Assembly: GCA_963816215.1 (NCBI GenBank)
Contig: CAWFKB010000007.1
Location: forward strand, 89,202-153,201
Direction of reading: 5' to 3'
DNA: 64,000 bases
Origin: an uncultured Chloroflexia bacterium
GTDB lineage: Bacteria > Chloroflexota > Limnocylindria > QHBO01
Under the pieces are notes generated by a model. It had not been told where the DNA came from, ran no database searches, and saw only the letters and a program-made list of their open reading frames with translations. Shown here one piece after another: positions 6,596 to 56,134 of this stretch. How positions within the stretch are numbered: position 1 is the stretch's first letter; every line of letters starts with the position of its first letter. The position numbers and the translations under genes are program-made.

Positions 6596-7600
6596 ATGGA
6601 CGACCACGAGGACCTGACCGGCTCAGCCCGGAAGCGCGACCGGCTCGCCCGCCTGCTGGCGGTGGCCTCGATCCTCTATGCCAAGGGCAGCACCGAGCAG
6701 GGCGTCCCGGTCACCGAGATTGCGAGCCTGACCGGCATGAACGTGCGGACCGTGTACCGCGACCTGCGCGCCCTCGAGGACGAGCTGTCGGTCCCGATCT
6801 TCCAGGCCGGCCGGGGCCGGTATGGGATTGAGCGCAAGTTCTTCCTGCCCCCGCTCCACCTGAGCGTGCCGGAGGCCATCGTCCTGTTCCTCGCCGCCCG
6901 CCTCATCGCGCGCTGGTCCGACGAGGCGGACCAGGTCGTCATCTCGACCTTCACCAAGATCGCGAGCGAGCTGCCGCAGCCCATCGCCCGCCACGTGACC
7001 GCGACCATGCTCGCGGTGGGGGCCCAGGGCGCGAACGAGCGCTTCACGGCCATCTTCAACAGCGTGGCCCGTGGCTGGGCCGAGGGCCGGGTGGTGGACA
7101 TCGTCTACGAGGGCACCAACGGCGAGACGCGCCAGACCCGGGTCCAGCCCTACGCCCTGGAGCCGTATGCGGAGGGGCGGAGCATCTATCTCATCGCTTT
7201 CGATGAGTCTGTCGGCGCCCTGCGCACGTTCAAGGTGGAGCGCATTCGGCAGGCCATCCTGACCCTGGATCCGTACGAGATCCCCGAGACCTTCGACCCC
7301 GACCAGTTCTTCGCCCACTCGTGGGGCATCTGGTCGGCGGAGGGCACGCCGATCGAGGACGTGCACCTGCGGTTCGAGAAGTCGGTCGCGCGGCGTGTGC
7401 GCGAGACGGTGTGGCATCGGTCCCAGGTCCTGACCGATCTGCCCGATGGGCGGATCGAGATGATGGTGCGGGTGGCGGGCATCGTCGAGATCCGACCCTG
7501 GATCCTGTCCTGGGGAGACCAGGTGGAGGTGCTGGAGCCGGCCAGCCTGCGCGAGGCCGTCTCGGCCGCGGTCCGGGGAGCGGCTGCCCGTTACGGCTGA
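6596..7600 (+). CDS. WYL-domain transcriptional regulator (HTH-WYL-WCX, PafC-like architecture)
   Basis: 334 aa. N-terminal DeoR-like HTH (VTEIASLTGMNVRTVYRDLRALE), central WYL-type block (YALEPYAEGRSIYLIAFDESVGALRTFKVERI), and a C-terminal WCX-like segment (WGDQVEVLEPASLREAV). Confidence 0.8.
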   Translation: MDDHEDLTGSARKRDRLARLLAVASILYAKGSTEQGVPVTEIASLTGMNVRTVYRDLRALEDELSVPIFQAGRGRYGIERKFFLPPLHLSVPEAIVLFLAARLIARWSDEADQVVISTFTKIASELPQPIARHVTATMLAVGAQGANERFTAIFNSVARGWAEGRVVDIVYEGTNGETRQTRVQPYALEPYAEGRSIYLIAFDESVGALRTFKVERIRQAILTLDPYEIPETFDPDQFFAHSWGIWSAEGTPIEDVHLRFEKSVARRVRETVWHRSQVLTDLPDGRIEMMVRVAGIVEIRPWILSWGDQVEVLEPASLREAVSAAVRGAAARYG

Positions 7601-8310
7601 GCGGACGCCCGGTCTGGCGTGTCGAGGGGGAGGCGGAGGATGAGGGCCAGGGTCGGCCGGTCGGGGAGCGGCGCTGGGACGAGGGGAGCACGCAACCAGG
7701 CTTCACCGGCCGGTCCGGAGCGGTAGCGGGACGACAGGCGACGCGCGGACAAGCCATCGATCCCGAGCCGCGCCAACGCCTCGGCCACCAGCGTCCCGTC
7801 GCTGCGATATCCGTGGCCAACGGTGATCCGATCGCCGGGGGCCAGGATCGCCGCAAGCCAGTCTCGGCGAACGGAGAACGACCGCCGCATGACCGATTCC
7901 CCGCCGGCCCATAACAGGTCAGCAGCGACGTATGCCGCCCGCCCGGGCCGCGGCTGACGACCTTCCAGGCGGGCACGCAGGAGGTCTGAATCGGGCCGAC
8001 CAGCGTCGTCCAGCACGAGCAGGGTCCCCTCCACGACCACCCCGTCCTCGCTCAGCTGGGCGGGCAGCTCCGCCAGCTCGGGGAACGCCGCTTCCGCATC
8101 GGCCAGCCCCGCCACCTGGAGGCGGACCCGGCCGCGCTCGGCGAAGGCCAACGCCCGCGCGCCGGGCCACCACGGCTCGAACAGGTAGTCGGGATCATCG
8201 AACGGCGCCGGGGCATCCGACGGTTGCATGAGCGCGATCCGGGCGGGGAGACGGGCCGGCCGCGGATCGAGGTCGGGCTCCGCCGGCAGGGGCAGCTGTT
8301 CGGCCGGCAC
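7591..8310 (-). CDS. ATP-dependent DNA ligase-like (LigD ligase-domain homolog) with motif-I lysine substituted. Probably non-catalytic.
   Basis: 239 aa, GTG start 8 nt after the Ku stop. Ligase motifs are recognisable but degenerate: motif I is EPWWPGAR instead of EPKWDGxR; motif IV is YVAADLLWAGGESVMRRSFSVRR; motif V is DGLSARRLSSRYRSGPAGEAWLRA with K->R. No OB domain. Confidence 0.6.
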   Translation of the reverse strand: MPAEQLPLPAEPDLDPRPARLPARIALMQPSDAPAPFDDPDYLFEPWWPGARALAFAERGRVRLQVAGLADAEAAFPELAELPAQLSEDGVVVEGTLLVLDDAGRPDSDLLRARLEGRQPRPGRAAYVAADLLWAGGESVMRRSFSVRRDWLAAILAPGDRITVGHGYRSDGTLVAEALARLGIDGLSARRLSSRYRSGPAGEAWLRAPLVPAPLPDRPTLALILRLPLDTPDRASAQP

Positions 8311-8318
8311 GCCGCGCG

Positions 8319-9224
8319 TCAGGCGGTCTTGCGCCGCCGGGTCTGACGCGTCTCGTCGGCCTCCGCCGGCTTGGCCGCGCGGCTGCGTTTCGCGGGCGCT
8401 GGCTTGCTCTCGGCCTGGGCGTCCCCGGCGGCCGCATCGCGCCGGGCCTCGCGGGCCGCGGCCACGCTCGCCTCGAGGGCGGCCATGAGGTCGCCGATGC
8501 GGGTGGGCTCGGCCTGGGCGATGGGCGTTGGCTCCTGGCCGGCGACCTTGGCCTCGATGACGCCCATCAGCGCCTCGCGGTATCCGTCGCGGTACTCGGA
8601 CGCGTCGAACGTGCCGGTCATGGACGCGATCAGCTGTTCCGCCATCTTCCGTTCCGAGGCCTTGATCTCGATCCCTTCCCGGTCCACCGCGATCTCCTCG
8701 ATCGGGCGCACCTCGTCGGGCCAGTGGAGGGTGGTCAGGAGCATCGACTCCGAATACGGGTTGATGGCGGCCAGCTGCTCGCGGTCCTTCATGACCACCT
8801 TGCAGATGGCGGTCTTGTTGGCATCGGCCAGGACCTCGCGCAGGAGGAAGAAGGCCTTCTTGCCGACCGGGTCGGGCTCGAGGTAGTAGGCGCTCTTCAC
8901 GAACTGCGCGCCATGGGCTTCCTCATCGGCATCGACGAAGGTCTCGATCTCGATGGCCCGGATCGTCTTGAGCGGCACGGCCTCCAGGTCGTCATCGGTC
9001 ACGACCACGTATCGGCCCTTGCTCCACTCATAACCGCGCACCGTTTCCGAGCGCGGCACGACCTCGTCGTGGAACGGGCAGTAGATCTTCATCTGGATCC
9101 GGTTCAGGCAGCTGGCATGCAGCATGTTGAAGCCGATGCCGCTGGACTCGGTCGCCAGGTACAGCTTGACGGGAATGGTCACCAATCCGAATTGGATGGC
9201 GCCCCGCCACATCGCGCGTGCCAT
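8319..9224 (-). CDS. ku: Ku protein (non-homologous end joining)
   Basis: Classic N-terminus MARAMWRGAIQFGLVTIPVKLY, followed by a Ku core and a basic C-terminal tail. I take the ATG at 9224, since the longer ORF upstream adds a junk-like extension. Confidence 0.85.
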   Translation of the reverse strand: MARAMWRGAIQFGLVTIPVKLYLATESSGIGFNMLHASCLNRIQMKIYCPFHDEVVPRSETVRGYEWSKGRYVVVTDDDLEAVPLKTIRAIEIETFVDADEEAHGAQFVKSAYYLEPDPVGKKAFFLLREVLADANKTAICKVVMKDREQLAAINPYSESMLLTTLHWPDEVRPIEEIAVDREGIEIKASERKMAEQLIASMTGTFDASEYRDGYREALMGVIEAKVAGQEPTPIAQAEPTRIGDLMAALEASVAAAREARRDAAAGDAQAESKPAPAKRSRAAKPAEADETRQTRRRKTA

Positions 9225-9276
9225 AGGGTCGGTGAGGATACACCCGGTCTTCCAGCCCCCCAAACCGGCCGTAGGG

Positions 9277-9717
9277 TCAGGACGGCCCGGTGACGACCAC
9301 GAGCGCCTGCTCCTCCGGCAGGCCAGGCCGATTGAGCCGATAGCGGTGCTCGATCCGGACCGAGTGGCTCAGCATCCGCGACACCGGGCAGTAGCGGGTC
9401 GCCGACAGCTCGACCGCGCGGCTGAGGGCCGCCGGTTCCACGGCGCCGGTTACCTGGTGCTCGACCACGATGGTGGTGAAGACGTGCGGCGGGGCCGGCG
9501 CCATCTCGGCCTGCACGGCGATCTCGTAGCGCTCGGGCACCTGGCGCTTCTTGGCCAGGATGCTGGCCACGTCCATGGCCGTGCAGCCCGCGAGGCCGAC
9601 CAGGACCGCTTCCCGGGGTGAGGCGCCAACCCGTTGGGCAGCGTCGGCCGAGTCGAGGACGATCGTGAAGCCCGAGCCGGTCGTGGCGTCGGTGCGCAGG
9701 GAGGCCGCCGGATCCAC
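9277..9717 (-). CDS. OsmC/Ohr-family peroxiredoxin-like protein
   Basis: 146 aa with the OsmC signature GASPREAVLVGLAGCTAMDVASIL. Confidence 0.8.
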   Translation of the reverse strand: MDPAASLRTDATTGSGFTIVLDSADAAQRVGASPREAVLVGLAGCTAMDVASILAKKRQVPERYEIAVQAEMAPAPPHVFTTIVVEHQVTGAVEPAALSRAVELSATRYCPVSRMLSHSVRIEHRYRLNRPGLPEEQALVVVTGPS

Positions 9718-9743
9718 GACCCGGGCCTGGACGCGGAGCCCGC

Positions 9744-10349
9744 TTACGGGTTGTCCTCCAGGGGCGTGGGAATCCAGCCGCGGACTTCCTCCTCGGGGAG
9801 GATGTCGGCCAGGAGGTTGTCGTGCTCGCGCTCGTCGGCGATCAGGAAGACCTGGGCCAGGGCCCGGTGCACGGCCACGACGTCGGCGGTCCCGTCCACG
9901 GCGGGGTAGGGCGCGCAGCTGACGGCGACATCGGTCAGGGGCACGAAGCGGTCGGACACGTTCATCAGGCCATCCATGGCCTGGCTGGCCTCGGGGACGT
10001 GGAACATGCCGGTCAGCCAGAACGGCGCGATCCCGACCTGGATCTTCACGGGGCGCTTCTGGACCTGGAACTCGTTGTCATCGTCCGGGGCGCCGCTGCT
10101 GATGCCGAACAGGATCTCGCTGATCGCGACCCGCACCTGCTGGCCGCCGCGGGCGGCGCCCTGATCGGCGTACTCCGTCACCGTCGCCTGGTCCACCGCG
10201 AGGTGGTCGGAGCCGGACAGGTTGAGGATGTCGGTGGCCTTGCGGAACCGGGTGGACATCGTGCCCGACACGCGGAAGCCGACCGTGTAGAGCTCGACCT
10301 GGACGGGGAGGGTCGGAGGTCCCAGCGATCCGGCGTCCCAGCTGCTCAC
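9744..10349 (-). CDS. Hypothetical protein (no family recognised)
   Basis: 201-aa ORF with GTG start and protein-like composition, packed tightly between the methyltransferase and OsmC genes on the same strand. Confidence 0.45.
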   Translation of the reverse strand: MSSWDAGSLGPPTLPVQVELYTVGFRVSGTMSTRFRKATDILNLSGSDHLAVDQATVTEYADQGAARGGQQVRVAISEILFGISSGAPDDDNEFQVQKRPVKIQVGIAPFWLTGMFHVPEASQAMDGLMNVSDRFVPLTDVAVSCAPYPAVDGTADVVAVHRALAQVFLIADEREHDNLLADILPEEEVRGWIPTPLEDNP

Positions 10350-10358
10350 ATACCGATG

Positions 10359-11129
10359 CTACCGCTTGCGCGCCTTCCAGACCTCCTCACTCGGCCAGTT
10401 TCGGGCCCACTCGAGGGTCGAGATGTTCGTGTACCGGGTCTCGGCGCCTTCGGGGGCGCGAATCTCGACCAGGTCGGTGACCTCGAATCCGCTGCTCACC
10501 AGCAACCGGATCATGTCGCCGTGGGACAGGTGGAACTCGACGCTGTCCTCATCGGTCCACTCGAATCGGTGCATCCCGAACTGGGGACGGATGAGCCTGT
10601 CGGTGGCAGGCCCGTCCACCTCGAGGTCGGGCACGCTCAGCATCAGCAGGACGCTGTTGCCCAGGAAGATGAGCTCGCCGCCCGGTCGCAGGAGGCGCGC
10701 CGCCTCGGGGATCCACTGGTACGGGTCGGCCCAGATGGCCGCGCCGTACTCGGAGATCGCCAGGTCGAAGCTCGCCTCGGGAAGCGGCACCTGTTCGGCG
10801 AATCCCAGGATGAGCGGGAACTCCAGCCCGTGCTCGGCCTGGAGGCGTCGCGCGGTCTCGAGCTGGCGGGGCGAGTTGTCGAGGCCCACCACCCGGGCGC
10901 CCCGTCGAGCGAGCCAGGCGGAGACGTAGCCCGTCCCGCAGCCCAGCTCGATGGCGTCCTTCCCCGCCAGGTCGTCCGGCAGGAGATGCAGCTCGGACTC
11001 GGGCACGCCCCAGATCCCCCACCCCGGCTCGTCCGACGCCCAGTTCCGCTCACCGGCCGCCACGTACTCCTCGGCGGCGGTATCCCACCAGGCGCGGTTG
11101 CGTCGGACGTGCTCGGGCAACTCTGCCAT
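10359..11129 (-). CDS. Class I SAM-dependent methyltransferase
   Basis: Motif I ELGCGTGYVSAWLARRGARVVGLD. ATG at 11129. The long N-terminal extension in the ORF track is Arg-rich junk. Confidence 0.75.
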   Translation of the reverse strand: MAELPEHVRRNRAWWDTAAEEYVAAGERNWASDEPGWGIWGVPESELHLLPDDLAGKDAIELGCGTGYVSAWLARRGARVVGLDNSPRQLETARRLQAEHGLEFPLILGFAEQVPLPEASFDLAISEYGAAIWADPYQWIPEAARLLRPGGELIFLGNSVLLMLSVPDLEVDGPATDRLIRPQFGMHRFEWTDEDSVEFHLSHGDMIRLLVSSGFEVTDLVEIRAPEGAETRYTNISTLEWARNWPSEEVWKARKR

Positions 11130-11187
11130 CAGGCGCCGGACGGTACCCGATCGGCCCCGGCCCCGCAGCGATGTGTACGATCGGCGC

Positions 11188-13536
11188 ATGGAGCCGTCCA
11201 CCGCCAACGTCCTGGGCGCGGACGCACCGACGTTCAGCGCCGAGCAGGCGCAGGACATCGTGGCGGCGGTGTGGGGTCGGCGCGGAACGGCGACGCCCCT
11301 CGTCTCCGAGCGGGACCAGAACTTCCGCCTGACCGATGAACACGGCACGTCGTGGGTCCTGAAGATCGCGAACGCGGTCGAGGACCCGGGCGTGGTGGAC
11401 ATGGAGGTCGAGGCCGTCCGCCACGTGGCACGGATGGACCCCGATCTCCCGGTCGCGGTCCCCATCCCGACCGATGACGGGCCGTCGGTTGTCTCGCTCC
11501 CCGGCCCACGTGGCGAGGTGCACCTGGTCCGGCTCCTGCCCTTCATGCCGGGGGCGCACGTCGATGCGGCCGACCTGGATCTCGACGCGATCACGGAGAT
11601 CGGACGGACAACGGCGCGCCTGGGGCGTGCCCTGCGCGGCTTCTTCCACCCGGCCGCGGGGCGCGTGATCCTGTGGGACATCAAGCATCTGGACGAGCTG
11701 CGTCCCCACCTGGGCGCCGTGGCCGACCCCGCGCGACGGGCGATGGTTGATCGGGCCCTGGAACGGTTCGACGTGCGGGTGGCGCCGGCCCTGCCCGGGC
11801 TGCGGGCGCAGGTCATCCACAACGACGCGACCCTGGACAACCTGCTGCTCGACGGCGGCCGCGTGTCAGGGATCGTGGACTTCGGGGACATGGCCCACAC
11901 CGCGCTGATCCTGGACCTGACCGCCATGCTGCAGTCCGTCCTGCGCGGTCGGGCCGACGTGTGGGAGGCCGCCGAGGCGGCCATCCAAGGCTACGGTTCG
12001 GTCATTCCCCTCGAAGCCGAGGAGGGCGACCTGCTGGCCGATCTGCTCGCCGCGCGGATGGTGCAGACCGTGCTCATCTCCGTGTGGCGCACCGCCCAGT
12101 ACCCCAACAACGAGTACATCCGAGGCTGGCTGGAACCGGCCTACGAGCTGCTCGATGCAATGGAGGCCTTCGGCTATGACGAGGCCGTTCGACGCCTGGC
12201 CGCCGCTGCGGGAAGCGCGGGCGCAGGAGCGCGCGATGCGCGCCGCACCATCATCCCGACCGAGGAGCTGCGGGAGCGCCGCCAACGGGTGCTCGGTTCC
12301 GCGCTGTCACCCCTGACCTACGACCGGCCACTGCATCTCGTCCGCGGTGACGGGGTGTGGCTGTACGACGCCGAGGACCGCGCCTACGTGGACGCCTACA
12401 ACAATGTGCCGGTCGTGGGCCACGCCCACCCGGTCGTGGTGGAGGCCATCGCCCGCCAGGCGGCAGACCTGAACACGAACACCCGCTACCTCCACGAGTC
12501 GGTCGTGCTCCTCGCCGAGCGCCTGACGGCCAGCATGCCCGAGGAGCTCGACACCGTCATGTTCGTGAACTCCGGGAGCGAGGCCAACGACCTGGCCTGG
12601 CGGCTGGCGACGGTGGCCACCGGCGGCACCGGCGGCATCTGCACCACCTGGTCGTACCACGGCCTGACCGCGGCCATCGCGGACCTGTCCTCCTCGGAGT
12701 GGCCGCGCGGGGAGCGGCCCGCATCGGTCGAAACGATCCCGGCTCCAGATCCGCTGCGCGGACCCCACCACGACCAGCTGGACGTGGACGTCGCCAGCGC
12801 CGCGGAGCTGGGCGCGGCCGCCGCGCGGCTGGTAGAGCAGGGCGTCACTCCGGCGGCCGTGTTCGTGGACGGGACGTTCACTGCCGATGGAATCTTCCCC
12901 ACCACGCCTGCGTACCTGGCCGAGCTCCGCCGCCAGACCACCGCCGCGAACGTGATCTACGTGGCGGACGAGGTCCAGGCCGGGCACGGTCGGACCGGGG
13001 ACCTGTGGAGCTTCGGGGCGTCGGGGGTCACGCCCGACCTGGTGACCCTGGGCAAGCCGATGGGCAACGGCCACCCGGTGGCGGCGGTCGTCGCCCGCTC
13101 GGAGATCGTGGATCGGTTCGCGGCGGAGCACGAGTACTTCAGCACCTTCGGCGGCAACCCCGTCGCGTGCGCCGCGGCGCTGGCGGTGCTGGACGTGATC
13201 GACGACGAGGGGTTGCTTCAGAACGCCGCGACCGTCGGTGGTCTCCTGCGGGACGCCGTGGAGGCCATGGCCGCCGACCACCCGGCCATCGGTGACGTCC
13301 GGGGCCGCGGCCTGATGGTCGGGGTGGACCTCATGGTCGACCGCGGGACGCGCGAGCCGGCCTCGGACCTGGCGCACCGGGTCATGAACGAGATGCGCGA
13401 GCGCGGAGTCCTGATCAGCACCACCGGGCGTTTGGGCAACGTCCTGAAGATCCGTCCCCCGCTGGTCCTGACCGCGTCCCAGGCCGAGCTGATCATCACC
13501 GCCCTGGACGACTCGCTGCGCGCCGCCGGCGCCTAG
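11188..13536 (+). CDS. Bifunctional fusion: APH/choline-kinase-fold phosphotransferase (N-terminus) + class-III PLP aminotransferase-like domain (C-terminus). Candidate aminoalcohol/hydroxylysine kinase + phospho-lyase.
   Basis: N-terminal half has the kinase catalytic loop [29 protein letters not shown]-terminal half has class-III aminotransferase motifs [16 protein letters not shown] and the PLP-lysine block [10 protein letters not shown]. Starts at ATG 11188. Confidence 0.85.
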
Positions 13537-13559: not shown

Positions 13560-15284
13560 CTACTCCGGGGGCAACGACCCGCGGGTCGCGATCCGCGCGT
13601 CCCGCCCGCCCTGCCCGGTGGCCAGCAGGATCCGACCGCTGGCCTGCGCCTCGAACAACGTTTCGACGGACGCCAGGTCGTCGATGTCGGCCACCGTCTT
13701 GTCCTCGCGGACGCGGACGATCCGCGGGAAGCGCAGCGCAAAGCCGCTCCCGTGGCGCGTGCTGCGCATGATCCGGTCGAACGCGATCTCGACCACGACC
13801 TCGGGCACCACGCTGCGGTAGCGGCCGAAGTCGCGGAGCGTGGTCTTCTGGAAATGCTCGGTGAAGGCGGCGATCTCCGCATCGGTCAGGCCGGTGTAGG
13901 CCTTGCCCACCACGGACAGGCCCGATCCATCGGTCTCGCGCACGGCAAAGGTGTAATCGGACAGCACGCCCCGGCGCTTGCCGTGGCCCCACTCGACGCC
14001 CACCACCACGCAGTCGAGGGTGGCGAGCGCCTTCTTGAGCTTCAGCCAGCCGAGCCCGCGACGACCCGGCTGATAGACCGATGCCGGGTCCTTGACCATG
14101 AGCCCCTCGTTGCGCCGCTCGCGAGCGGCGTCGAACAGAGCGTCCACCTCGTCCGTGCTCGTGGCCCGATCCAGGCGGGCGTACAGGAGCCGGCCATCGG
14201 TCTTGCCCGGCAGATCGAGCGCTTCCAGGGCCGCCCGGCGCTCGCGGAGCGGCGTCTCCAGCAGGTCGCGCCCGTCGACGTGTAGCACGTCGAACGCGAC
14301 CAGGACCACCGGTACGCGCTCCAGGAGTGCGGCGTCGGGATTGACCCGGCCAAGACGCCGCTGGAGGGCGGCGAAGTCCAGGACGGCGCCCGCCTTGAAC
14401 GGGATCAGCTCCCCGTCCAGGACCAGGTCATGGCCGAGGGAGGCAACCGAGCTGACGACCTCCGGGAAGGAGACGGTGATCTCCTTCAGGTCGCGGCTGA
14501 AGAGGCGCGCGGTGCCGCTGGCGAGATGGAGCTGAGCCCGGATGCCGTCGTACTTGTCCTCGATCCAGGCCTCGTCACCCACCCGGCGCACGACCTCCGC
14601 CGCGTCCCCGACCGGGGTCGCGAGCATGGGTCGGATGGGTCGTCCCAGGTGCAGGCCGGCGGTGTCGAGCTGGCCGCGCCGGGCCAGGGTGGCTGCCTCA
14701 CCGGGTTCGCCCAGGAGCATCAGCGCGCGTCGAACCGATGCCTGCGGCGCGTCGAAGGCGGCGGCAATGGCCTCCTCCAACAGGCCCTCACGCAGACCAA
14801 TGCGCGTTTCGCGTGCCGCGATCCGCGCGACGTATCGGGCTTCGTCAGGCGTGGCCCGCCGGAACAGCTCGGTCATGACCGCCACCCGGGCGTCGGTGGT
14901 CGGGGCATCGGCCATGGCCCGGTAGCCGTCGGCCACGTCGCCCACGGTCAGTACCGGGCCCGCGGGACGCTGGGCGGCAAGGAGGTCCGCCGCCGCATCC
15001 CCGAAGTCGGAGTGGCGGAGCCACGCGGCGGACATCGCTTCTTCTGCGGCCCCGCTGGCTGCGGCCAGGGCGGCGGCCTGCTGGACCCATCCCAGGCCGA
15101 GACGGTCCGCGGCGCCGGGGAGCGGCTTGCCCGACAGGAACGTTGCGGCGCGCGGCAGATCCGCGGCCGGCAGGTCATGCAGGTAGGCGGCCAGGATGTC
15201 GCGCTTGGCGAGCTTGGACCGGGTCGCCGCCACCGCGTCCGCGGTGGCGGCAAAGGCACTGAACGGGGAGCTTCGGGATGCCAT
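13560..15284 (-). CDS. lig: ATP-dependent DNA ligase (LigB/Lig1-like, with N-terminal DNA-binding domain)
   Basis: 574 aa. Motif I EDKYDGIRAQ, motif III LDGELI, motif V GLMVKDPASVY, motif VI WLKLK. Confidence 0.85.
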   Translation of the reverse strand: MASRSSPFSAFAATADAVAATRSKLAKRDILAAYLHDLPAADLPRAATFLSGKPLPGAADRLGLGWVQQAAALAAASGAAEEAMSAAWLRHSDFGDAAADLLAAQRPAGPVLTVGDVADGYRAMADAPTTDARVAVMTELFRRATPDEARYVARIAARETRIGLREGLLEEAIAAAFDAPQASVRRALMLLGEPGEAATLARRGQLDTAGLHLGRPIRPMLATPVGDAAEVVRRVGDEAWIEDKYDGIRAQLHLASGTARLFSRDLKEITVSFPEVVSSVASLGHDLVLDGELIPFKAGAVLDFAALQRRLGRVNPDAALLERVPVVLVAFDVLHVDGRDLLETPLRERRAALEALDLPGKTDGRLLYARLDRATSTDEVDALFDAARERRNEGLMVKDPASVYQPGRRGLGWLKLKKALATLDCVVVGVEWGHGKRRGVLSDYTFAVRETDGSGLSVVGKAYTGLTDAEIAAFTEHFQKTTLRDFGRYRSVVPEVVVEIAFDRIMRSTRHGSGFALRFPRIVRVREDKTVADIDDLASVETLFEAQASGRILLATGQGGRDARIATRGSLPPE

Positions 15285-46747: not shown

Positions 46748-48085
46748 TCAGAACCTCACGTCCGACCACAGGTCGAGGGCCTGGCGCAACTCGGGACAGC
46801 TCTGTGCCGCATGCTGGAGTGTCTGCCCGGCAGCGACCGCCTCGACCGCGGCGCGCGCCGCAACTGCGCCGGCTCGGCTCCCTCCGGGATGCCCATGCAC
46901 GCCGCCGCCGAACAGGAAGAAGGCATCCGTGCCGAAGACCGCGTGGAGCTGGGGGAGGTGGCCCGGGTGCAGGCCGCCCGAGGCCACGGGCACGACAGGT
47001 TTGATCGCACCCCACTCCTGGTCGAACAGCGTCCCGCCGCCGGCGGGTGCAAATGCGGCGGTCATCATGCGGCGCCGTTCGCCCATCTCCTCGATCGTTC
47101 CTTCGAGCTTCCCCACGCCCGTGCCGACATGGAGATGATCAACGCCCATCAACCGCGCCCACTTTGCGATGACCAGGAAGTCCACGCCGTGATCGGGGTG
47201 ACGATCCATGACCGCGTGCATGGCCCGGTGTGCGTGCAGCGCCAGTCCCAGGCGCTCAGCCTCCGCACGGAGAGACGCGGTCGCCGCAAAACCCGCCGTC
47301 AGAAAGTCGACCATCACGAAACGTCCCCCCCGATCGGCGACCACGTTGGCGCGGCGAAGCATCTCCTCGGTGTTGGCGGCGGTGACGTTGGCCCAGTAGC
47401 CCTTGCGCTCTCCGGTCTCGGCCTCGGCGCGCTGCACGAGCTCAAGTGTTCGCTCGATGCGTTCGTCAAAGGGAGACCACGCCTGACTGTTGAGGTTCTC
47501 GTCGTCCTTGATGGTGTCGATCCCGCCGCTCAGGGTCTCGTAGGCGCGTCGTGCATGCTCAGCCGGCGAGAGTCCCAGCTTCGGCTTAATGGTTGAGCCC
47601 GTGAGCGCCCTGCCATGCACGTTCAGCTTCTCCCGAACGCCCGCCATGCCGAAGGCCGGCCCCGGGAAGGAATCGACCAGGGGGAGCGGGATGCGCATGT
47701 CGAGCAGGCGGAGCGCGCTCACCGCCTTGAAGCCGAACACATTGCCGACCACGCTGGACAGGATGTTCGGAATGCTGCCGAACTCGAACAGGTCGATCGG
47801 GTACGCGATCCAGACGAGGCCGTTGGCGATCCGGTACACGCGCGCCCGAAGCTCGTAGGCCAGACCTTCGTCGTCCTCGCCGACCTCGGTCCACGTCCCG
47901 GTCGAGGATTCGGCCGCCACCGCAGCCGCGGCCTCTTCCATCGACGTGTCCGCCCGCGGAGCGACCTTGAACGCGACCAGCAGATCCGTCGCAATCGGCA
48001 CGTAGTCGAGGGCCAGGTACAGCTCCTGGTACGAGTGGACTCCACGGGTCCGCTCAGGTCCTGTCCGCGCGGTGGTCTGGCTCAC
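46748..48085 (-). CDS. rbcL: Ribulose-1,5-bisphosphate carboxylase/oxygenase large subunit (no small subunit nearby; form II/III-like)
   Basis: 445 aa with the active-site residues of a genuine RuBisCO: GSTIKPKLGLS, GGIDTIKDDENLNSQ, HAHRAMHAV, HLHVGTGVGKLEG, PVASGGLHPG, LFGGGVHGHPGG. N-terminal GTWTEV and VGNVFGF. Confidence 0.85.
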   Translation of the reverse strand: MSQTTARTGPERTRGVHSYQELYLALDYVPIATDLLVAFKVAPRADTSMEEAAAAVAAESSTGTWTEVGEDDEGLAYELRARVYRIANGLVWIAYPIDLFEFGSIPNILSSVVGNVFGFKAVSALRLLDMRIPLPLVDSFPGPAFGMAGVREKLNVHGRALTGSTIKPKLGLSPAEHARRAYETLSGGIDTIKDDENLNSQAWSPFDERIERTLELVQRAEAETGERKGYWANVTAANTEEMLRRANVVADRGGRFVMVDFLTAGFAATASLRAEAERLGLALHAHRAMHAVMDRHPDHGVDFLVIAKWARLMGVDHLHVGTGVGKLEGTIEEMGERRRMMTAAFAPAGGGTLFDQEWGAIKPVVPVASGGLHPGHLPQLHAVFGTDAFFLFGGGVHGHPGGSRAGAVAARAAVEAVAAGQTLQHAAQSCPELRQALDLWSDVRF

Positions 48086-49681: not shown

Positions 49682-50857
49682 TCAGCGACGGGCGCCGAGG
49701 CGTCGGCCGATTCCGATGGTGCGGGCAACCCGGGCTGCGGCGTTGGCCAGGAGGCGCTCGGTGTCGGCCATGGCGGAGTCCAGCTCGACCGGTCGATCGA
49801 TGATCGGCTGGACCACGGCGAAGGCACCAGATGCCTCCAGGATCTCGGCCCCGGGGCCGAGGCCGCCGCACAGGAGGGCCACGGGGATGCCGCGCGCGTA
49901 GTGAGCCACGCCCAGCGCCGCCTTGCCGGCCAGGGTCTGCTCGTCGGCTCGTCCCTCGCCGGTGAGGACGAGATCCGCGTCCTGGAGGGCGGCGGGCAGC
50001 CCCACCAGCTCGGCCACCTCCTCGACTCCCGGAAGGACGACCGCTGACGTGAAGCCCAGCAGGCCGGCGGTCGTGCCGCCCGCGGCGCCGGCCCCCGGAA
50101 CGTCGGTGACGTCGCGACCGGTTGCCCGCCGGATCTCGGCGCCCCAGCGGACGAGCGCGGCATCGAGCTCCGCCACGGTGGCCGCATTGGCGCCCTTCTG
50201 GGGGGCGAAGGTCGCAGCCGCCCCGGCAGGCCCGGTCAGCGGGTTGGTGACATCCGAGGCGATCACGATCTCCGTCCCCGCCAGCCGTGGATCGAGTTCG
50301 TCCACCTCGACGTGATCGAGGTTCGACAACGCGGCGCCGCCATCGGGCAGCGGCTCGCCCCGCGCGTCCAGCAGCCGCAATCCGAGTTCCACCAGCAGGC
50401 CGGCGCCCCCGTCTGTCGTCGCCGAGCCACCGAGGCCCACCACGATCCGGCGTGCGCCCGCATCGAGGGCGGCGCGGATGACCCGGCCCGTCCCGCGTGT
50501 GGACGCCGTGCGCGCGTTGGCCGGCGTGCGCTCGGCAGCCGAGAGCCGTGCCAGGCCGCTGGCCTCGGCCATCTCCACGAACGCGGACGATCCAGAGTCC
50601 ATGGACAGCCAGGCGGCCTCCACCGGACGGCCCAGCGGGTCCACCGTGGTGCACACCTGCCGCGTGACCTGCTCCCCGTTGGCCGCGGCGATGGCCGTCA
50701 GCGTTCCCTCCCCGCCGTCCGCCATCGGGATCTGCAGGATCGTGTCGTCGGGTCGGATCGAAGCCCAGCCACGAGCGATGGCCTCGGCCGCGGCCACCGA
50801 GTCCAGCGCGCCGCCGAACGAGTCGGGAGCGACCACCACCCGCAGGGCGGGGCTCAC
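49682..50857 (-). CDS. Glycerate kinase (GlxK/GarK family)
   Basis: 391 aa, glycerate-kinase family throughout (VVAPDSFGG..., GGGAGLL...). ATG overlaps the upstream stop (ATGA). Confidence 0.8.
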   Translation of the reverse strand: MSPALRVVVAPDSFGGALDSVAAAEAIARGWASIRPDDTILQIPMADGGEGTLTAIAAANGEQVTRQVCTTVDPLGRPVEAAWLSMDSGSSAFVEMAEASGLARLSAAERTPANARTASTRGTGRVIRAALDAGARRIVVGLGGSATTDGGAGLLVELGLRLLDARGEPLPDGGAALSNLDHVEVDELDPRLAGTEIVIASDVTNPLTGPAGAAATFAPQKGANAATVAELDAALVRWGAEIRRATGRDVTDVPGAGAAGGTTAGLLGFTSAVVLPGVEEVAELVGLPAALQDADLVLTGEGRADEQTLAGKAALGVAHYARGIPVALLCGGLGPGAEILEASGAFAVVQPIIDRPVELDSAMADTERLLANAAARVARTIGIGRRLGARR

Positions 50858-52767
50858 GAGCTGAGCTCCTTGCGCCGGGCCAGGTAGGCGGGGATGGTGT
50901 TCATCGGCGGACGAATGGCGTCACCCACCTCGCGCACGTCCAGGGTGAATCGGCCGTTCTCCTGGCGGATCTGCTTCATGCGCTCCCCCATATCGGTCAG
51001 CAGCTCCAGGCGCTGGCGTTCCTCGAGCTTGGTGATGGCCGCCTTGAGGATGACGAACGCCATCCGGGACAGGTCAGGCAGGGACTGGTTGCGGTGGATG
51101 CGGCGCTCGAGGTCCACCTGGCCGATCCCGGACAGGCCCACGCGGTCGGCAATGTCGATGAGAAGACCGATTTCGACAGCGTAGCCGGTGAAGAACGGCA
51201 CCGATTCGAGCAGCTCGCGCCGTCCGGCGTATTCGCCCGACAGGGGCTGGATGACCCCGGACAGCTCGGGGAAGAACAGGTTGATCAGGGGCCGCGCCGT
51301 CAGCTCGGTGACCCGCCCACCCTGGTCCGGCTGGAGCTGCCCGCCAGTGACGATGGGACGCTGGTAGAAGCCCTTCACGTACTGGATCCGCGGCTCGCGG
51401 AGCAGTGGCCCCAGCAGGCCGTACACGAACCGGGGCTGGATGTTGCGGATGTCGGTGTCGACCCACACCACCAGGTCGCCGCGCAGCTCGTACAGGCTCT
51501 TCCAGAGCGCCTCGCCCTTCCCCACGTATGCGCCCAGCTCGGGGAGGATCTCGTCGTGCTGGCGGACGGCGGCGCCGAGCTCGCGGGCAATCTCGACCGT
51601 GCGGTCGGTGGAGGCCGAGTCGACGACCAGGAGCTCATCAACCAGCGGGACTCGGTCCATGAGCGCCTCTCGAATGCGGCGTATGGTCAGGCCAATCGTC
51701 TTCTCCTCGTTGAGGGTCGGGAGGCCCACGCTGACGGTCAGGGCCTGCCGTTCCTTGAGATCGACCAGCCGATGGAGGTCGCGGAACTCGCTGGCGTGGA
51801 ACGTGTTCTCCGCGAACCAGCGGTCAACAACAGTCGGCAGGGTGTTGCTCTCCTCGAACGCGGCATCGGCCGCCGGGAGGCTCCCGGCCTCGGCCCGCAG
51901 GTGCTCGAAGGTCCCCGCGGTCACGGGCTGTCGCGACTTCACCACCATCACCGTGGGGCGGGCGCGGGATGCCACCGTCTCCGCCAGGCGCCCGAACAGG
52001 CGACGCCCGGTGCCGCTCCCCGTGGGCTCCGCCGCGGCCCCGACCACCACCAGGTCGTGGTGGGCCGACTCGCGCAGGATGGCGCCGCGCACGGTCGGTG
52101 CCTCGATCACGAGCGGCTTGACCGTCACGCCCCGGGCATGCCGTTTGACGAGCCCGCTCAACGCCGCCTGGCTGCGGGCCAGCGCGTCGGGACCGCCCCC
52201 CGGCGGGACGACGTGAAGGGCCACCAGCTGGGCACCAAATCCGCGGGCCAGGTCCGCCGCGAGGGTCAGGGCCAGCTCGGCGTTGGGGCCGCCACGGACC
52301 GGGACCAGGATGGAGCTCACGCTCCCGAGGCCGCGCTGCTTGACCACGGCGATGTCACATGGCGCGTCGCGGACCACGTCGTCGATCGTGGTCGAGAACA
52401 CCGCTCTCCCGCGTTGTCCCTGTCGCGGAGGTCCGCCCCAGCCGAAGATGACGAGATCGGCCCCGATCTCGGCCACCGCCTCCACGATCCCGTCCGATGC
52501 CTGGCGGCCGATCCGAACCGCGGTCCGGACCTCGACCGACGCGTCATCGCGGAAGTTCGGCACCCGCTGCAGGAGGCGCCGCGCCTCACGAGCGCGGTTG
52601 GCGCCCTCGGCCAGGGACACGCCCTCGGGCACCTCGACGATGCCCAGGGCCGTGATCTCGGTCGCCCGCCGATGGGCCAGGTGCGAGCCGATCCGGACCA
52701 GGTCGCGCGCCGTCCGCGGGTTGGCCAGGGGCATGAGGATCCGATACGGCCCCCGGCGGCGCGCCAT
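50854..52767 (-). CDS. gpgS: Fusion of tandem universal stress protein (UspA) domains with glucosyl-3-phosphoglycerate synthase (GpgS)
   Basis: N-terminal about 300 aa are two Usp-like domains. C-terminal about 320 aa match GpgS closely: LPTLNEE, LVVDSASTDRT, GKGEALWKSL, GGRVTELTARPL, QPLSGEYA, GYAVEIGLLID, HRN. The ATG at 52767 overlaps the upstream stop (TGATG). Confidence 0.7.
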   Translation of the reverse strand: MARRRGPYRILMPLANPRTARDLVRIGSHLAHRRATEITALGIVEVPEGVSLAEGANRAREARRLLQRVPNFRDDASVEVRTAVRIGRQASDGIVEAVAEIGADLVIFGWGGPPRQGQRGRAVFSTTIDDVVRDAPCDIAVVKQRGLGSVSSILVPVRGGPNAELALTLAADLARGFGAQLVALHVVPPGGGPDALARSQAALSGLVKRHARGVTVKPLVIEAPTVRGAILRESAHHDLVVVGAAAEPTGSGTGRRLFGRLAETVASRARPTVMVVKSRQPVTAGTFEHLRAEAGSLPAADAAFEESNTLPTVVDRWFAENTFHASEFRDLHRLVDLKERQALTVSVGLPTLNEEKTIGLTIRRIREALMDRVPLVDELLVVDSASTDRTVEIARELGAAVRQHDEILPELGAYVGKGEALWKSLYELRGDLVVWVDTDIRNIQPRFVYGLLGPLLREPRIQYVKGFYQRPIVTGGQLQPDQGGRVTELTARPLINLFFPELSGVIQPLSGEYAGRRELLESVPFFTGYAVEIGLLIDIADRVGLSGIGQVDLERRIHRNQSLPDLSRMAFVILKAAITKLEERQRLELLTDMGERMKQIRQENGRFTLDVREVGDAIRPPMNTIPAYLARRKELSS

Positions 52768-54065
52768 CAGGACGGTTCCCTTTGCGCGCCAGCGGCCTGC
52801 GCCTGCCAGGCGCGCACGAGCCACGGCTTGAGGTCCTCGAACTCGCGCGCCTGGGCTTCGACCAGCCGCTCGGCCTGGTCGTCGGTCAGGTCACGGACCT
52901 CGTTGATGAATCCCGCCGTGCGCCCGAAGTACAGCCCCGTCAGCCCGGCCAGCAGGGCCTCGCGGTCCATCCCGGAGCGCTGGAAGGCCAGCAGCGCGTC
53001 GAACAGGCAGCGGATCCAGAGCTCCGAGGGAAAGGCGAAGGTGGACGGATCGTCCACGGACAGGGCCCGGACTCGCTCGAGCTGCTCCCCGGCCAGCACC
53101 CGCTTCCAGACCGTTCCCTCGGCCAGCCGCGCGTTGTCGAAGCCATGAACGAGCGCGGCCTGGTCCACCGTGATCGGCTCCGGGGCGATGACCCGCTCGA
53201 AACCGTACTCGGGCACCGGTTCGGAGCCCTTGATCGGCAGCCACTCGGCGGCCTGCTCTCCGGCCAGCCGGAAGAGGGTCCCGACCACCTGGCGGAACAT
53301 CGGTCCCAGGTCGCCGGCGGGGTCCTTGGGGTCGTGGACCTTGGCCCCCAGCCGGGTCTGGCACACCGCGAACCCGCCGGCCAGGGCGTGGTGGGTCATC
53401 CAGATGTCGATCCCGAACCGCGCCGTGCCCTCGTCCCAGTCGGGCAGCTCGAGCAGCGCCTTGACCAGGTCGCGGCTGATGGCGAACTCCCCGCCGATCG
53501 GCTGCCGCAGGCGACGCCCGTACAGGGTCCGGGTCAGCGGGTAGGCGATGTGGTTGGTGATCGTGCCGTCGTACTTGTGGCGGGCGTAGAGCGGCGCGAC
53601 GTAGTCGTAGCCGCCCTTCAGGATCGGTCCGGCCAGGAGCTCGATCCACTCGGGCACGATGCTGCGCAGGTCGGAGTCGACGAGGACGAGCGCCTCGACC
53701 TTCAGCTCGTGCGCGACCTCCAGCAGGGCGCGCACCGCCGATCCCTTCCCGCTGGGTCCCCGGTAGGTGACCGCGATCCGCCGCAGCCGGTGCGGGGGCC
53801 GGATGAGGATCATCTGCTCCAGGTAGTCGGGGCTCTCGGTCGTGACCGCCACCCGGGGCGTGTCGTCGGCGGAGCCGCCGTCCGCGTTCACGAGCACCGG
53901 TTTGAGGTCGGTGAAGTACTGGACCATGCCCGCCGTCGCGGCCCGCACCACGTACCCGATCGTGTCCGCATTCCCGAAGGACGGGATGCCCACCATGAGA
54001 TCCGCCTGGCCCACCCGGCGCACCGCGTTCCATCCGCGTGCGTCCAGAGCGGAGGCGACCTTCAC
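52767..54065 (-). CDS. GT-A-fold glycosyltransferase (GpgS/MpgS-like), specificity unknown
   Basis: GIPSFGNADTIGYVV and VNADGGSADDTP glycosyltransferase motifs. The GTG overlaps the upstream stop (GTGA). Confidence 0.6.
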   Translation of the reverse strand: MKVASALDARGWNAVRRVGQADLMVGIPSFGNADTIGYVVRAATAGMVQYFTDLKPVLVNADGGSADDTPRVAVTTESPDYLEQMILIRPPHRLRRIAVTYRGPSGKGSAVRALLEVAHELKVEALVLVDSDLRSIVPEWIELLAGPILKGGYDYVAPLYARHKYDGTITNHIAYPLTRTLYGRRLRQPIGGEFAISRDLVKALLELPDWDEGTARFGIDIWMTHHALAGGFAVCQTRLGAKVHDPKDPAGDLGPMFRQVVGTLFRLAGEQAAEWLPIKGSEPVPEYGFERVIAPEPITVDQAALVHGFDNARLAEGTVWKRVLAGEQLERVRALSVDDPSTFAFPSELWIRCLFDALLAFQRSGMDREALLAGLTGLYFGRTAGFINEVRDLTDDQAERLVEAQAREFEDLKPWLVRAWQAQAAGAQREPS

Positions 54066-54757
54066 CGGTTGATCACGCGCTTCTTGCGTCCCTTCCAGAA
54101 CAGGTTGGTGGGCCCGGGCGCCCGGTCGGGCTGGATGGCGATCACGATCCAGTCCTCGGTCGCGGTCCCCGGCTGGTAGCGCGAGTTGGCGTGCTTGGCC
54201 ACCGCCTGGCGGAAGCCGTTCTCGTGCCAGGCGTGGAACCACGACCCGAGCGGCATCTTGACCGATGGCGTGACTCGCACGCGGACACTCTCCGAGACCA
54301 GGCCCGACAGGAGCCGGCGCCGCTCCTGGTACGGCACGTCCCCCAGGAATTCGCCGTCGATCTCGACCACGTCCACCACCACGAACGCGCGCCGCTTCTC
54401 GAGCTCCGCGGGATCAGGCCCCTCTTCAGGCAGGTCGCCGGCCTCGTCGGCCAACGCCTCCGACCATCGCTCGGCCGCCGACCCATGGCCCAGGAAGGGC
54501 TGGGCGCTCCAGATCCCGTCGAGCACCGCCTGATCGGCGTCAACCGACACGGCGAGGACCTCGGCCAGCTCGTGGTAGAAGTCGTCGACCGGCACCCCCG
54601 ACCCATCGGTCAGGCGGACGGTCCCGTCGCTGATGGAAGCCACCAGGCGATCCCCGGTCCAGTACGGCTCGAACGACCAGTGCGGGCTGTTGATGCTCAC
54701 TCTCGACTCGGTCGCGAGCTGGGGAAGGATGGGCCCGACGCCGCGCTCGGTGGTCAT
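54062..54757 (-). CDS. ATP-dependent DNA ligase-like protein (second paralog) with motif-I Lys and motif-III Glu substituted. Probably non-catalytic.
   Basis: ILPQLAT...HWSFEPYWTGDR (motif I, K->Y); VLDGIWS (motif III, E->I); FVVVDVVEIDGEFLGDVPYQERRRLL (motif IV); NGFRQAVAKHANSRYQPGTATEDWIVIA (motif V/VI). ATG overlaps the helicase stop (ATGA). Confidence 0.55.
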   Translation of the reverse strand: MTTERGVGPILPQLATESRVSINSPHWSFEPYWTGDRLVASISDGTVRLTDGSGVPVDDFYHELAEVLAVSVDADQAVLDGIWSAQPFLGHGSAAERWSEALADEAGDLPEEGPDPAELEKRRAFVVVDVVEIDGEFLGDVPYQERRRLLSGLVSESVRVRVTPSVKMPLGSWFHAWHENGFRQAVAKHANSRYQPGTATEDWIVIAIQPDRAPGPTNLFWKGRKKRVINR

Positions 54758-56025: not shown

Positions 56026-56134
56026 CGAGGGCTCCGGTTCGAAAAACAGTGGTCGTGGGCCGATCGTAGCACGGGGTTCGGCGACTGGCCTGTCGCAGCC
56101 TGAACGCTTGACGAGACCGGGTATCATCCTCGTC

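Follow-up and report, generated by a model that had tools for sequence, protein, structure and literature searches.

The gene studied here lies on the reverse strand at 7591..8310 of the window, as the whole analysed stretch of 64,000 nucleotides is called in the following, and encodes a lysine-less LigD-like protein (pLig1) of 239 amino acids, with a GTG start, a TGA stop and a GC3 of 0.83. The exact protein is already present in NCBI/ENA (entry P0001), where NCBI labels it as hypothetical. Upstream on the same strand follow a bacterial Ku gene (8319..9263; TIGR02772 E 2e-80, Pfam Ku E 1e-41), whose stop codon precedes the start of pLig1 by 8 nt, directly upstream of it an OsmC-like gene (9277..9717), a DUF6812 gene (9744..10349) and, at 13560..15284, an intact three-domain ATP-dependent DNA ligase of the LigB/Lig1-like type (PF04675, PF01068 with 152.8 bits, PF04679), the motif I of which is unbroken (EDKYDGIR). 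Downstream, an HTH-WYL-WCX regulator gene (6596..7600, forward strand; Pfam WYL and WCX) runs convergently and overlaps the 3' end of pLig1 by 10 nt. A scan of 7000..11000 for sigma-70 promoters and terminators found nothing, and the mycobacterial PafBC-type promoter motif (TGTCGGTG-N8-TANNNT) was matched at chance level only and never upstream of the Ku-pLig1 operon. A defence or phage origin was considered and rejected, with zero hits in PADLOC, zero in PHROG and zero homologs on viral contigs.

In the AF2 model of pLig1 (pLDDT 90, pTM 0.82) residues 20-210 (7681..8253, reverse strand) form an ordered nucleotidyltransferase (NTase, adenylation) domain with pLDDT mostly >90; the model was built from an alignment of 110 sequences, and 37 close homologs alone yielded a pLDDT of 42. 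Foldseek matched it to solved ligases, i.e. archaeal ATP-dependent ligases and the LIG domain of M. tuberculosis LigD, with a probability of 1.0 and an rmsd of 2.2-2.5 Å, and the fold present is that of the covalent nucleotidyltransferase superfamily. With LigD LIG (Rv0938; PDB 1vs0, 6nhx, 6nhz) and the stand-alone LigC the protein shares this fold at ~27-28% identity and an rmsd of ~2.3-2.5 Å; phmmer against PDB retrieved 1vs0 with E 6e-15. The earlier note had suggested a profile search and an alignment with LigD as checks, and the best NCBIfam matches were indeed LigD-type models, covering residues 28-207, with W47 standing opposite Lys481 in the alignment. All curated family thresholds are nevertheless missed (PF01068 24.2 vs 26.2 bits; TIGR02779 74.8 vs 227.75; NF007210 (PRK09632) 92.2 vs 989). 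Differing from LigD, pLig1 possesses neither a POL nor a PE domain, and the OB domain with motif VI is absent as well, the protein ending 30 residues past motif V and showing no PF04679 match.

The motifs of the domain, all on the reverse strand, are degenerate from I to V. Motif I (codons 45-52, 8155..8178) reads EPWWPGAR in place of the canonical ExKWDGxR, and because FEPWWPGAR stands without a gap against FEGKWDGYR in the phmmer alignment to 1vs0 (M. tuberculosis LigD), Lys481 corresponds to W47 and the next Asp to P49. Ser-Arg of motif Ia has become V66-A67. Contrasting 25 members of the pLig1 family with 57 lysine-containing relatives motif by motif, motif III is E94-G95-T96 (8023..8031; canonical D-G-E), with Glu in 55 of 57 relatives vs Thr in 21 of 25 family members, and motif IIIa is A130-D-L-L (7912..7923; canonical F-D-L-L), with Phe/Tyr in 57/57 vs Ser/Ala in 23/25. 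Motif IV, D185-G-L-S-A-R190 (7741..7758; canonical E-G-[VIM]-[VIM]-A-K), has Arg in 24/25 family members where the relatives have Lys in 57/57, and its S188 is specific to the family; in motif V, W205-L-R-A-P209 (7684..7698; canonical W-[LV]-K-x-K), the first Lys is replaced by R207 and the second by P209. Glu of motif III, the aromatic residue of IIIa, Glu and Lys of IV and Lys-x-Lys of V are kept in 41-57 of the 57 catalytic relatives and all replaced in pLig1. The earlier note had claimed the changes of Lys to W and of the next Asp to Pro in motif I as well as the exchange of Lys for Arg in motif V, all of which translation of the open reading frame and the LigD alignment bore out; its list of altered motifs was right in this respect, but missed the losses in Ia, III, IIIa and IV and of the OB domain. 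No lysine at all is encoded in pLig1, nor in 62 of 77 orthologs, and none of the alignment columns of these 77 is a conserved Lys or His. Since the protein has no lysine, an alternative motif I elsewhere, which the note had named as a possible refutation, does not exist.

The altered motif is no peculiarity of this genome. Among 885 database homologs, FEPWWPG was found in 119 of the 120 closest, so that orthologs share the change from Lys to W, and the two tryptophans are encoded by TGG TGG in 81/81 orthologous loci. It follows that the W-W substitution is not an error, and the unambiguous coding DNA stressed in the earlier note reflects real substitutions. A pLig1 relative is encoded in 218 species genomes, almost all of them Limnocylindria (Chloroflexota). 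Conserved residues show synonymous codon variation, dN/dS amounts to ~0.17-0.30, and median identity to the window copy is 68% for pLig1, 73% for Ku and 72% for the intact ligase. Purifying selection acts on the gene in >200 species. A non-functional relic, be it a pseudogene or a sequencing or assembly artefact, might be suspected from the Pfam score below the gathering threshold (24.2 vs 26.2) and from the hypothetical label of NCBI, yet the reading frame is intact in 78/81 loci of independent assemblies, dN/dS is ~0.2-0.3, TGG TGG is invariant and pLig1 is conserved about as well as Ku; the comparative data refute this explanation, to which we give next to no credence.

Because the lysine nucleophile, residues contacting nucleotide and DNA, and the OB domain are lost, pLig1 is predicted to be unable to self-adenylate or to seal DNA. 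With its catalytic residues lost and its fold and purifying selection kept, it is, judged from its sequence, a pseudoenzyme that goes back to the adenylation domain of an end-joining ligase of the LigD type. The view of the earlier note that the product is a non-catalytic ligase homolog is thereby strongly supported, as lysine is missing, all nucleotide-contacting motif residues are replaced and selection has preserved the gene in >200 species. No description of a pLig1-type protein was found in the literature or in curated family libraries, and a literature search on inactive or pseudo-ligases in NHEJ returned nothing relevant.

It could be argued that the reshaped domain performs another chemistry, e.g. 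as half of a split ligase borrowing an OB domain or a nucleophile in trans, or as an AMP/ATP-binding sensor. The invariant new residues W47, P49, T96, S188, R190 and R207 suggest a remodelled pocket more than decay; against this stand the lack of Lys and of a prominent conserved His, Ser or Cys candidate for a nucleophile, the loss of the adenine-stacking aromatic residue and the ribose-binding Glu, and the lack of an OB-only partner gene in the conserved neighbourhood, which together render a non-canonical enzyme highly improbable.

Ligases hold DNA by the Arg of motif Ia and the lysines of motifs IV and V. The earlier note supposed that a nick- or DNA-binding scaffold had been kept, and the dead domain might accordingly clamp a 5'-phosphate nick or an end and shield or mark the DNA. 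The NTase fold of ligases is intact and the Gly of motif I and Arg52 are kept in close family members, which would suit such a protector. However, the Arg of motif Ia, which 52/57 catalytic relatives possess, is replaced together with the lysines of motifs IV and V, Arg52 gives way to P, A or Q in distant family members, an OB or other DNA-binding domain is missing, and the protein is acidic (pI 5.1 as a whole, 5.55 in the core); this part of the note found no support, and we regard a role in protecting DNA as improbable.

As LigD does, pLig1 has Ku as a genomic partner. In all 78 loci having upstream sequence (78/78) Ku is located immediately upstream on the same strand, and the pairing recurs in the distant members P0130 and P0122, within unrelated neighbourhoods. 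In most loci the QLxL motif at the N-terminus of pLig1 (see below) starts 17-27 nt past the Ku stop, which places the pLig1 start ~8 nt past the stop, as in every inspected row; this arrangement suggests that pLig1 is probably translationally coupled with Ku. The wider neighbourhood is also retained, with the OsmC-like gene in 63/80 loci, the DUF6812 gene in 51/80 and the WYL regulator downstream and convergent in 73/80. In all loci that extend far enough (52/52), the intact ligase is encoded on the same strand 2.3-8.2 kb upstream, a linkage limited to Limnocylindria and absent around P0130 and P0122, and it is likely the catalytic ligase of the cluster. A canonical LigD with polymerase domain was detected by tblastn neither in the window nor within ~10 kb in 80 loci. 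The queries were 11 long LigD-like representatives, several of which open with a phosphoesterase signature, as assigned by the start of the sequence only, and every match in the 80 loci starts inside the ligase portion of the query. No Prim-Pol or phosphoesterase domain is fused or adjacent to pLig1, and the matches in the window covered only ligase adenylation and OB regions.

Exchange of D522 for Arg in M. tuberculosis LigD abolishes Ku binding (bioRxiv 10.64898/2025.12.12.693941), and this contact aligns with E88 of pLig1, in an acidic E88-D89 pair which is specific to the family, the position being variable in catalytic relatives. The same data are compatible with an inhibitory role of pLig1. 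The dead domain would in this case be a decoy or negative regulator that fills the ligase-docking site on Ku or on Ku-bound ends and restrains joining for as long as no signal dislodges it. The coupling to Ku, the loss of catalysis and the acidic patch at the Ku-contact position of LigD all agree with this, and stoichiometric co-expression from a gene pair spaced by 8 nt would suit a stable Ku-bound cap. A pure competitor would, on the other hand, have no need of the two additional conserved terminal docking peptides described below, the window and the flanks of 80 loci yielded no canonical LigD as a possible rival, and the constant linkage to an intact ligase fits cooperation equally well. 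We consider a decoy unlikely, if less so than the readings weighed above.

Both ends of pLig1 carry a short conserved peptide, a further difference from LigD. The first, Q5-L-P-L-P-A10 (8281..8298, reverse strand; family consensus QLxL[PS][VIL]), sits within a low-pLDDT tail in the first 10 residues, the window copy having Ala at motif position 6 vs V/I/L in the consensus. In 74 aligned orthologs bearing the motif, Q is conserved in 97% and L6 and L8 in 100%, whereas the linker behind the motif varies in both length and sequence; these statistics partly rest on the choice of the orthologs, which were picked by a QLxL-type pattern that 78/81 loci match. A QLxLx-type N-terminus was present in 15/46 lysine-less representatives vs 0/57 lysine-containing ones; the remaining 46 proteins predicted in the window all lack it. 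Many pLig1 database entries begin at Met28, and the N-terminal motif is missing from them. QLSLPL of Hda is a tight clamp-binding peptide, the clamp-binding consensus being QL[S/D]LF (PMC12309361). The N-tail of the pLig1 family, Q-L-x-L-[PS]-[VIL] ahead of a flexible linker, resembles the N-terminal hexapeptide of Hda and fits the pattern QL[S/D]LF or QLxLxL of clamp-binding peptides, which are terminal or embedded in a linker; candidate peptides are MPAEQLPLPAEP and, in the consensus version, EQLPLPV. The remainder of pLig1 is unrelated to Hda, and the putative tie to DnaN consists in this short motif. A literature search for a connection of the clamp with the Ku pathway of bacteria turned up none.

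The second peptide, R218-PTLALILRLP-L229 (7624..7659, reverse strand; family RPxLALI[LQ]RLPL), again of low pLDDT, is preceded by a variable linker; in 77 orthologs R218, P219, L221, L223 and L227 never vary, P228 and L229 are conserved in 96%, and the motif is retained in representatives at 50% identity. Its codons, like those of the conserved residues in the first peptide, vary synonymously. The idea that the RLPL tail is what is left of a first OB strand was discarded, since an LPL-type tail also stands at the extreme C-terminus of longer lysine-less relatives such as P0161 (352 aa, with a weak OB-domain match) and P0198 (362 aa, long enough for an OB domain). P0161 adjoins Ku and P0198 lies directly upstream of a full LigD. 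The assumption that all lysine-less RLPL-tailed relatives are linked to Ku was likewise rejected: P0392 and P0407 carry the tail without an adjacent Ku, and the tail may therefore not be a Ku-docking peptide. Other families of lysine-less LigD-like proteins, OB-less or OB-containing, occur in metagenomes, P0161 and P0198 among them, and several of these proteins have the N-terminal QLxLxL and the RLPL tail in common with pLig1. A second paralog in the window (54062..54757, reverse strand) is likewise a LigD-like protein without the motif I lysine, but is only ~26% identical to pLig1; it differs in a variable residue at the Lys position of motif I (Y/A/S/F/C), a retained Lys in motif IV, a basic tail and the lack of an adjacent Ku.

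Ku coupling, the two tail peptides and the acidic patch at the Ku-contact position of LigD are conserved features that point to protein-protein docking, and the predicted inability of pLig1 to ligate implies that it probably assists the repair of DNA breaks in bacteria without enzymatic activity of its own. The reading we prefer, at a probability of roughly 60%, is that of a non-catalytic, Ku-coupled end-joining adaptor. Such an adaptor would be co-transcribed with Ku and would dock on it by its folded domain and/or one of the tail peptides. The remaining peptide would serve to bring in a further partner, which may be the beta sliding clamp (by the N-terminal QLxLP[VIL]) or the intact three-domain ligase, and the latter, encoded a few kb upstream, would do the chemistry.

 

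XRCC4, XLF and PAXX of eukaryotes are non-enzymatic, Ku-dependent end-joining factors which dock on Ku via short terminal peptides on flexible tails and aid a separate catalytic ligase. The likeness of pLig1 to them is a functional analogy only, its Ku binding and ligase support being hypothetical; homology is lacking, the fold is another, and pLig1 derives from the ligase itself. Bacterial NHEJ is usually pictured as a minimal two-protein machine of Ku and the multifunctional ligase LigD. Throughout a class of Chloroflexota from soil and freshwater, Ku is paired with a ligase-derived protein predicted to be unable to ligate, with an ordinary three-domain ligase nearby. JGI pipelines annotate hundreds of pLig1-type proteins as "bifunctional NHEJ protein LigD", and inferences on end joining drawn from metagenomes of these lineages therefore assign ligase activity to the wrong gene. 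If pLig1 is an adaptor, it would correspond in bacteria to the non-catalytic scaffolds of eukaryotes, having arisen independently from the ligase itself, and would show a route by which a LigB/Lig1-type ligase reaches double-strand breaks. More tentatively, and with doubt prevailing, Limnocylindria and probably other uncultured Chloroflexota might possess a three-part NHEJ, in which a ligase-derived pseudoenzyme similar to XRCC4, XLF or PAXX, tethered to the Ku ring and, by its Hda-like QLxLP[VIL], to the beta clamp, brings a replicative-type three-domain ligase to breaks. Were this so, prokaryotic NHEJ would have in pLig1 its first described core accessory factor without catalytic activity, and in the tie to the clamp its first described connection of that kind.

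The pLig1 gene (7591..8310, minus strand), encoding a LigD-like protein without lysine, is an intact ORF of 239 aa with a GTG start. In a phmmer search of all PDB chains the best match was the ligase domain of M. tuberculosis LigD (1vs0, 6nhx, 6nhz; E ~6e-15), and FEPWWPGAR of pLig1 paired without gaps with FEGKWDGYR, so that W47 stands in place of the adenylated Lys481 and P49 in place of the following Asp. The replacement of the motif I lysine, proposed in the earlier note, was thereby confirmed from this alignment and from codons 45-52 of the degenerate EPWWPGAR (8155..8178, minus strand). Degeneracy proved greater than listed there: alignment with the PDB chains and of 110 sequences placed V66-A67 at the canonical Ser-Arg of motif Ia, T96 at the Glu of motif III, A130 at the Phe of motif IIIa, D185 and R190 at the Glu and Lys of motif IV and R207-A-P209 at the Lys-x-Lys of motif V, where besides the reported change of the first lysine to Arg the second is also gone. 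The protein ends 30 residues past motif V and hence lacks an OB domain, and as it contains no lysine at all, a real motif I cannot lie elsewhere.

The contrast set of 57 lysine-containing relatives retains each of ten tabulated catalytic positions in 52-57 members: Lys, Asp, Gly and Arg of motif I, Asp and Glu of motif III, the aromatic residue of motif IIIa, and Glu, Gly and Lys of motif IV. The motif Ia Arg is present in 52 of them, and of the two motif V lysines the first in 50 and the second in 41. The PF01068 score of pLig1 (24.2 bits) is under the Pfam threshold of 26.2, and all NCBIfam ligase models remain far under their own cut-offs, with a match restricted to aa 28-207. Judged by its residues, ligation chemistry by pLig1 is excluded, and the earlier view of a non-catalytic ligase homolog was borne out by the zero lysine count and the replacement of motifs Ia, III, IIIa, IV and V. 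The family has near-invariant residues of its own (W47, P49, T96, S/A130, S188, R190, R207, P209), which indicates a re-purposed pocket under selection. Such a pocket might belong to a non-canonical enzyme; among 77 orthologs no conserved His column was found, 62 have no Lys and the other 15 have one at unconserved sites, and this explanation is ranked near the bottom, above only that of a relic.

A non-functional relic is the least likely reading, given how the gene is maintained. Among 5.8 billion proteins searched, 885 homologs of pLig1 were found, and FEPWWPG is present in 119 of the 120 closest (identity at least 67%). The codons of W47-W48 are TGG TGG in 81/81 loci, while adjacent conserved Pro and Gly codons vary synonymously, so that K->W is common to orthologs and a local sequencing error was not borne out. 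Pairwise dN/dS is 0.17-0.23 between the window copy and its 12 closest scored relatives (median 0.30 across ~2,900 pairs). Measured against the window copy, median identity is 68% for pLig1, 73% for Ku and 72% for the intact ligase nearby. On these sequence data the motif changes are neither error nor gene decay. Relatives occur in 218 genomes (scanned with one genome per species), the best 80 of which are nearly all Candidatus Limnocylindria / Chloroflexota MAGs. Five loci (L006, L021, L034, L035, L051) labelled Pleomorphomonadaceae, Methylomirabilota, Steroidobacteraceae, Zixiibacteriota or Dormiibacterota carry the same genes as Limnocylindria in the same order at 68-76% identity, and are probably mis-binned contigs and not horizontal transfers. 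In the closest relative (L005, contig CAWEPF010000008.1, 10001..10690; 96% identity) the match is limited to residues 1-230 and the frame is still open beyond the position of the window stop codon, which may reflect stop loss or an assembly difference.

An AF2 model built from 110 diverse sequences reached pLDDT 90 and pTM 0.82, a confidence that depends on the alignment (pLDDT 42 with a shallow one). It is ordered over residues ~20-210, with low confidence in both tails (1-20 and 211-239), and its Foldseek matches in the PDB were exclusively ATP-dependent DNA ligases, led by archaeal ligases and M. tuberculosis LigD LIG (probability 1.0, rmsd 2.2-2.5 A).

The stop of Ku (8319..9263, minus strand; TIGR02772, E 2e-80) is separated from the pLig1 start by 8 nt. 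Of the 80 loci compared, 78 have upstream sequence, and in each of these Ku is the immediate upstream neighbour in the same orientation. The N-terminal QLxL motif begins 17-27 nt past the Ku stop in most loci, which places the pLig1 start codon ~8 nt after the stop, as seen in every row inspected. Even the distant homologs P0130 and P0122 (44-49% identity) directly follow Ku, one with a 4-nt overlap, in neighbourhoods that are otherwise unrelated, so that Ku-pLig1 is the conserved unit. The Limnocylindria block runs: intact three-domain ligase, DUF6812, OsmC, Ku, pLig1, a convergent HTH-WYL-WCX regulator and a MerR-HTH/GAF/GGDEF protein. The OsmC-like and DUF6812 genes (9277..10349, minus strand), directly upstream of Ku with gaps of 13 and 26 nt, are probably transcribed as a single unit together with Ku and pLig1. 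The regulator, of PafBC-like architecture (6596..7600, plus strand), overlaps the 3' end of pLig1 by 10 nt and recurs downstream in 73/80 loci; a promoter motif of the mycobacterial PafBC type was not found near the Ku-pLig1 operon. The intact LigB/Lig1-like ATP-dependent ligase (13560..15284, minus strand; PF04675, PF01068 at 152.8 bits, PF04679) has an intact motif I, EDKYDGIR. In every Limnocylindria locus with enough sequence (52/52) it lies 2.3-8.2 kb upstream, in the same orientation. In the window a methyltransferase gene (10359..11102, minus strand) and an APH-aminotransferase fusion gene (10951..13536, plus strand) are inserted between this ligase and DUF6812. A LigD polymerase or phosphoesterase domain was found neither in the 64-kb window nor in the flanks of the 80 loci, and no association of pLig1 with defence systems or phages was found.

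Alignment of 77 orthologs, with coding sequences anchored by a QLxL-type pattern present in 78/81 loci and frames open from the pLig1 start codon, revealed two conserved islands set off from the domain by linkers variable in length and sequence: Q5 (97%), L6 (100%), x, L8 (100%), P/S9, V/I/L10 at the N-terminus and R218-P-[TR]-L-A-L-I-[LQ]-R-L-P-L229 at the C-terminus. Both lie within the low-confidence AF2 tails, and their codons vary synonymously. Many public gene calls (203-207 aa; among homologs P0019-P0120) start at M28 (8227..8229), an internal Met of the ligase "PML" strand, and thus cut off the conserved QLxLP motif. In its residues the N-terminal peptide resembles bacterial sliding-clamp-binding motifs, with the consensus QL[S/D]LF and the Hda peptide QLSLPL as a tight binder (PMC12309361); in the window copy, position 6 is Ala. 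When representatives at 50% identity are compared, 15/46 lysine-less proteins carry a QLxLx-type motif at the N-terminus, versus 0/57 lysine-containing ones; one Dehalococcoidia protein begins MPQLSLF, and among the predicted proteins of the window pLig1 alone has a motif of this kind. An OB remnant was rejected as the origin of the C-terminal tail, which longer lysine-less relatives, P0198 and P0161 among them, also possess; two other tailed lysine-less forms are not Ku-linked.

In M. tuberculosis the Ku C-terminus touches the ligase domain of LigD, and LigD with the substitution D522R no longer binds Ku (bioRxiv 10.64898/2025.12.12.693941). The pLig1 residue aligned with D522 is E88, in an acidic pair, E88-D89, particular to the family and variable in catalytic relatives; the window Ku has a basic C-terminal tail. 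What is conserved in pLig1, a folded domain and two docking-type peptides always encoded together with Ku, favours an adaptor, as do the acidic patch at the D522 position and the basic Ku tail. We put the probability that pLig1 is a non-catalytic Ku-coupled accessory factor at roughly 0.6. As a Ku-bound adaptor it would recruit a second partner: the clamp, the intact ligase nearby or both. The ligase would do the sealing, and each named partner is less certain than the accessory role itself. A decoy or gatekeeper, equally non-catalytic, would fit almost as well. Protection of DNA ends comes after the decoy, though ahead of an enzyme: the nick- or DNA-binding scaffold suggested earlier is doubtful for the domain alone, given the lost DNA-contact residues, the missing OB or DNA-binding domain and a pI of 5.1.

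A second lysine-less, OB-less LigD-like gene, paralog 2 (54062..54757, minus strand; ORF open to 54835; motif I FEPYWTGDR), is only ~26% identical to pLig1 and does not adjoin Ku. Its family is kept in Limnocylindria; the lysine position holds Y/A/S/F/C, the motif IV Lys is still present, and the C-terminal tail, LFWKGRKKR, is basic. With the intact ligase and pLig1 this gives one live and two dead ligase-fold genes within 64 kb. In its surroundings (49682..56436, minus strand) an upstream DEAD-box helicase gene (54754..56436, minus strand) overlaps the long form of the ORF with its 3' end, and a mannosylglycerate-synthase-like glycosyltransferase, a USP-GT2 fusion and a glycerate kinase downstream look like a compatible-solute (stress) set. 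A RuBisCO large-chain homolog (PF00016 + PF02788) lies at 46748..48085 (minus strand).

Further lysine-less LigD-like proteins adjoin NHEJ genes (L086 1585..5476; L090 2..1683; P0137, which looks like a read-through of a pLig1-family member into canonical LigD). The gene of P0198 (K->S, N-terminal QLTLQL, RLPL tail) immediately precedes that of a full PE-LIG-POL LigD, and the gene of P0161 (K->D, weak OB-domain match) directly follows Ku. A GBBH-like_N gene (PF06155) recurs near several different lysine-less ligase-like genes (L086 5839..6270; L091 8115..9236; L092 6033..7154; L093 9404..10523), followed in L091-L093 by YbjQ_1 (PF01906) and a ~114-aa gene; in L091 and L092 a PPK2 gene precedes the ligase-like gene, and PPK1 and CYTH-CHAD are close by.

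By homology pLig1 is a LigD-type adenylation domain, but it fails each catalytic criterion and each curated threshold of the ligase family and should therefore not be annotated as LigD or ligase; its family is currently "hypothetical" at NCBI and "bifunctional NHEJ protein LigD" at JGI. Eukaryotic non-catalytic NHEJ scaffolds dock on Ku via tail peptides and, by analogy, may be its nearest functional counterparts. Literature searches turned up neither lysine-less ligase paralogs in Ku operons nor a connection between the clamp and NHEJ. Known solely from uncultured organisms, pLig1 would represent a clear and widespread exception to the two-component view of bacterial end joining, the mechanism of which we infer.
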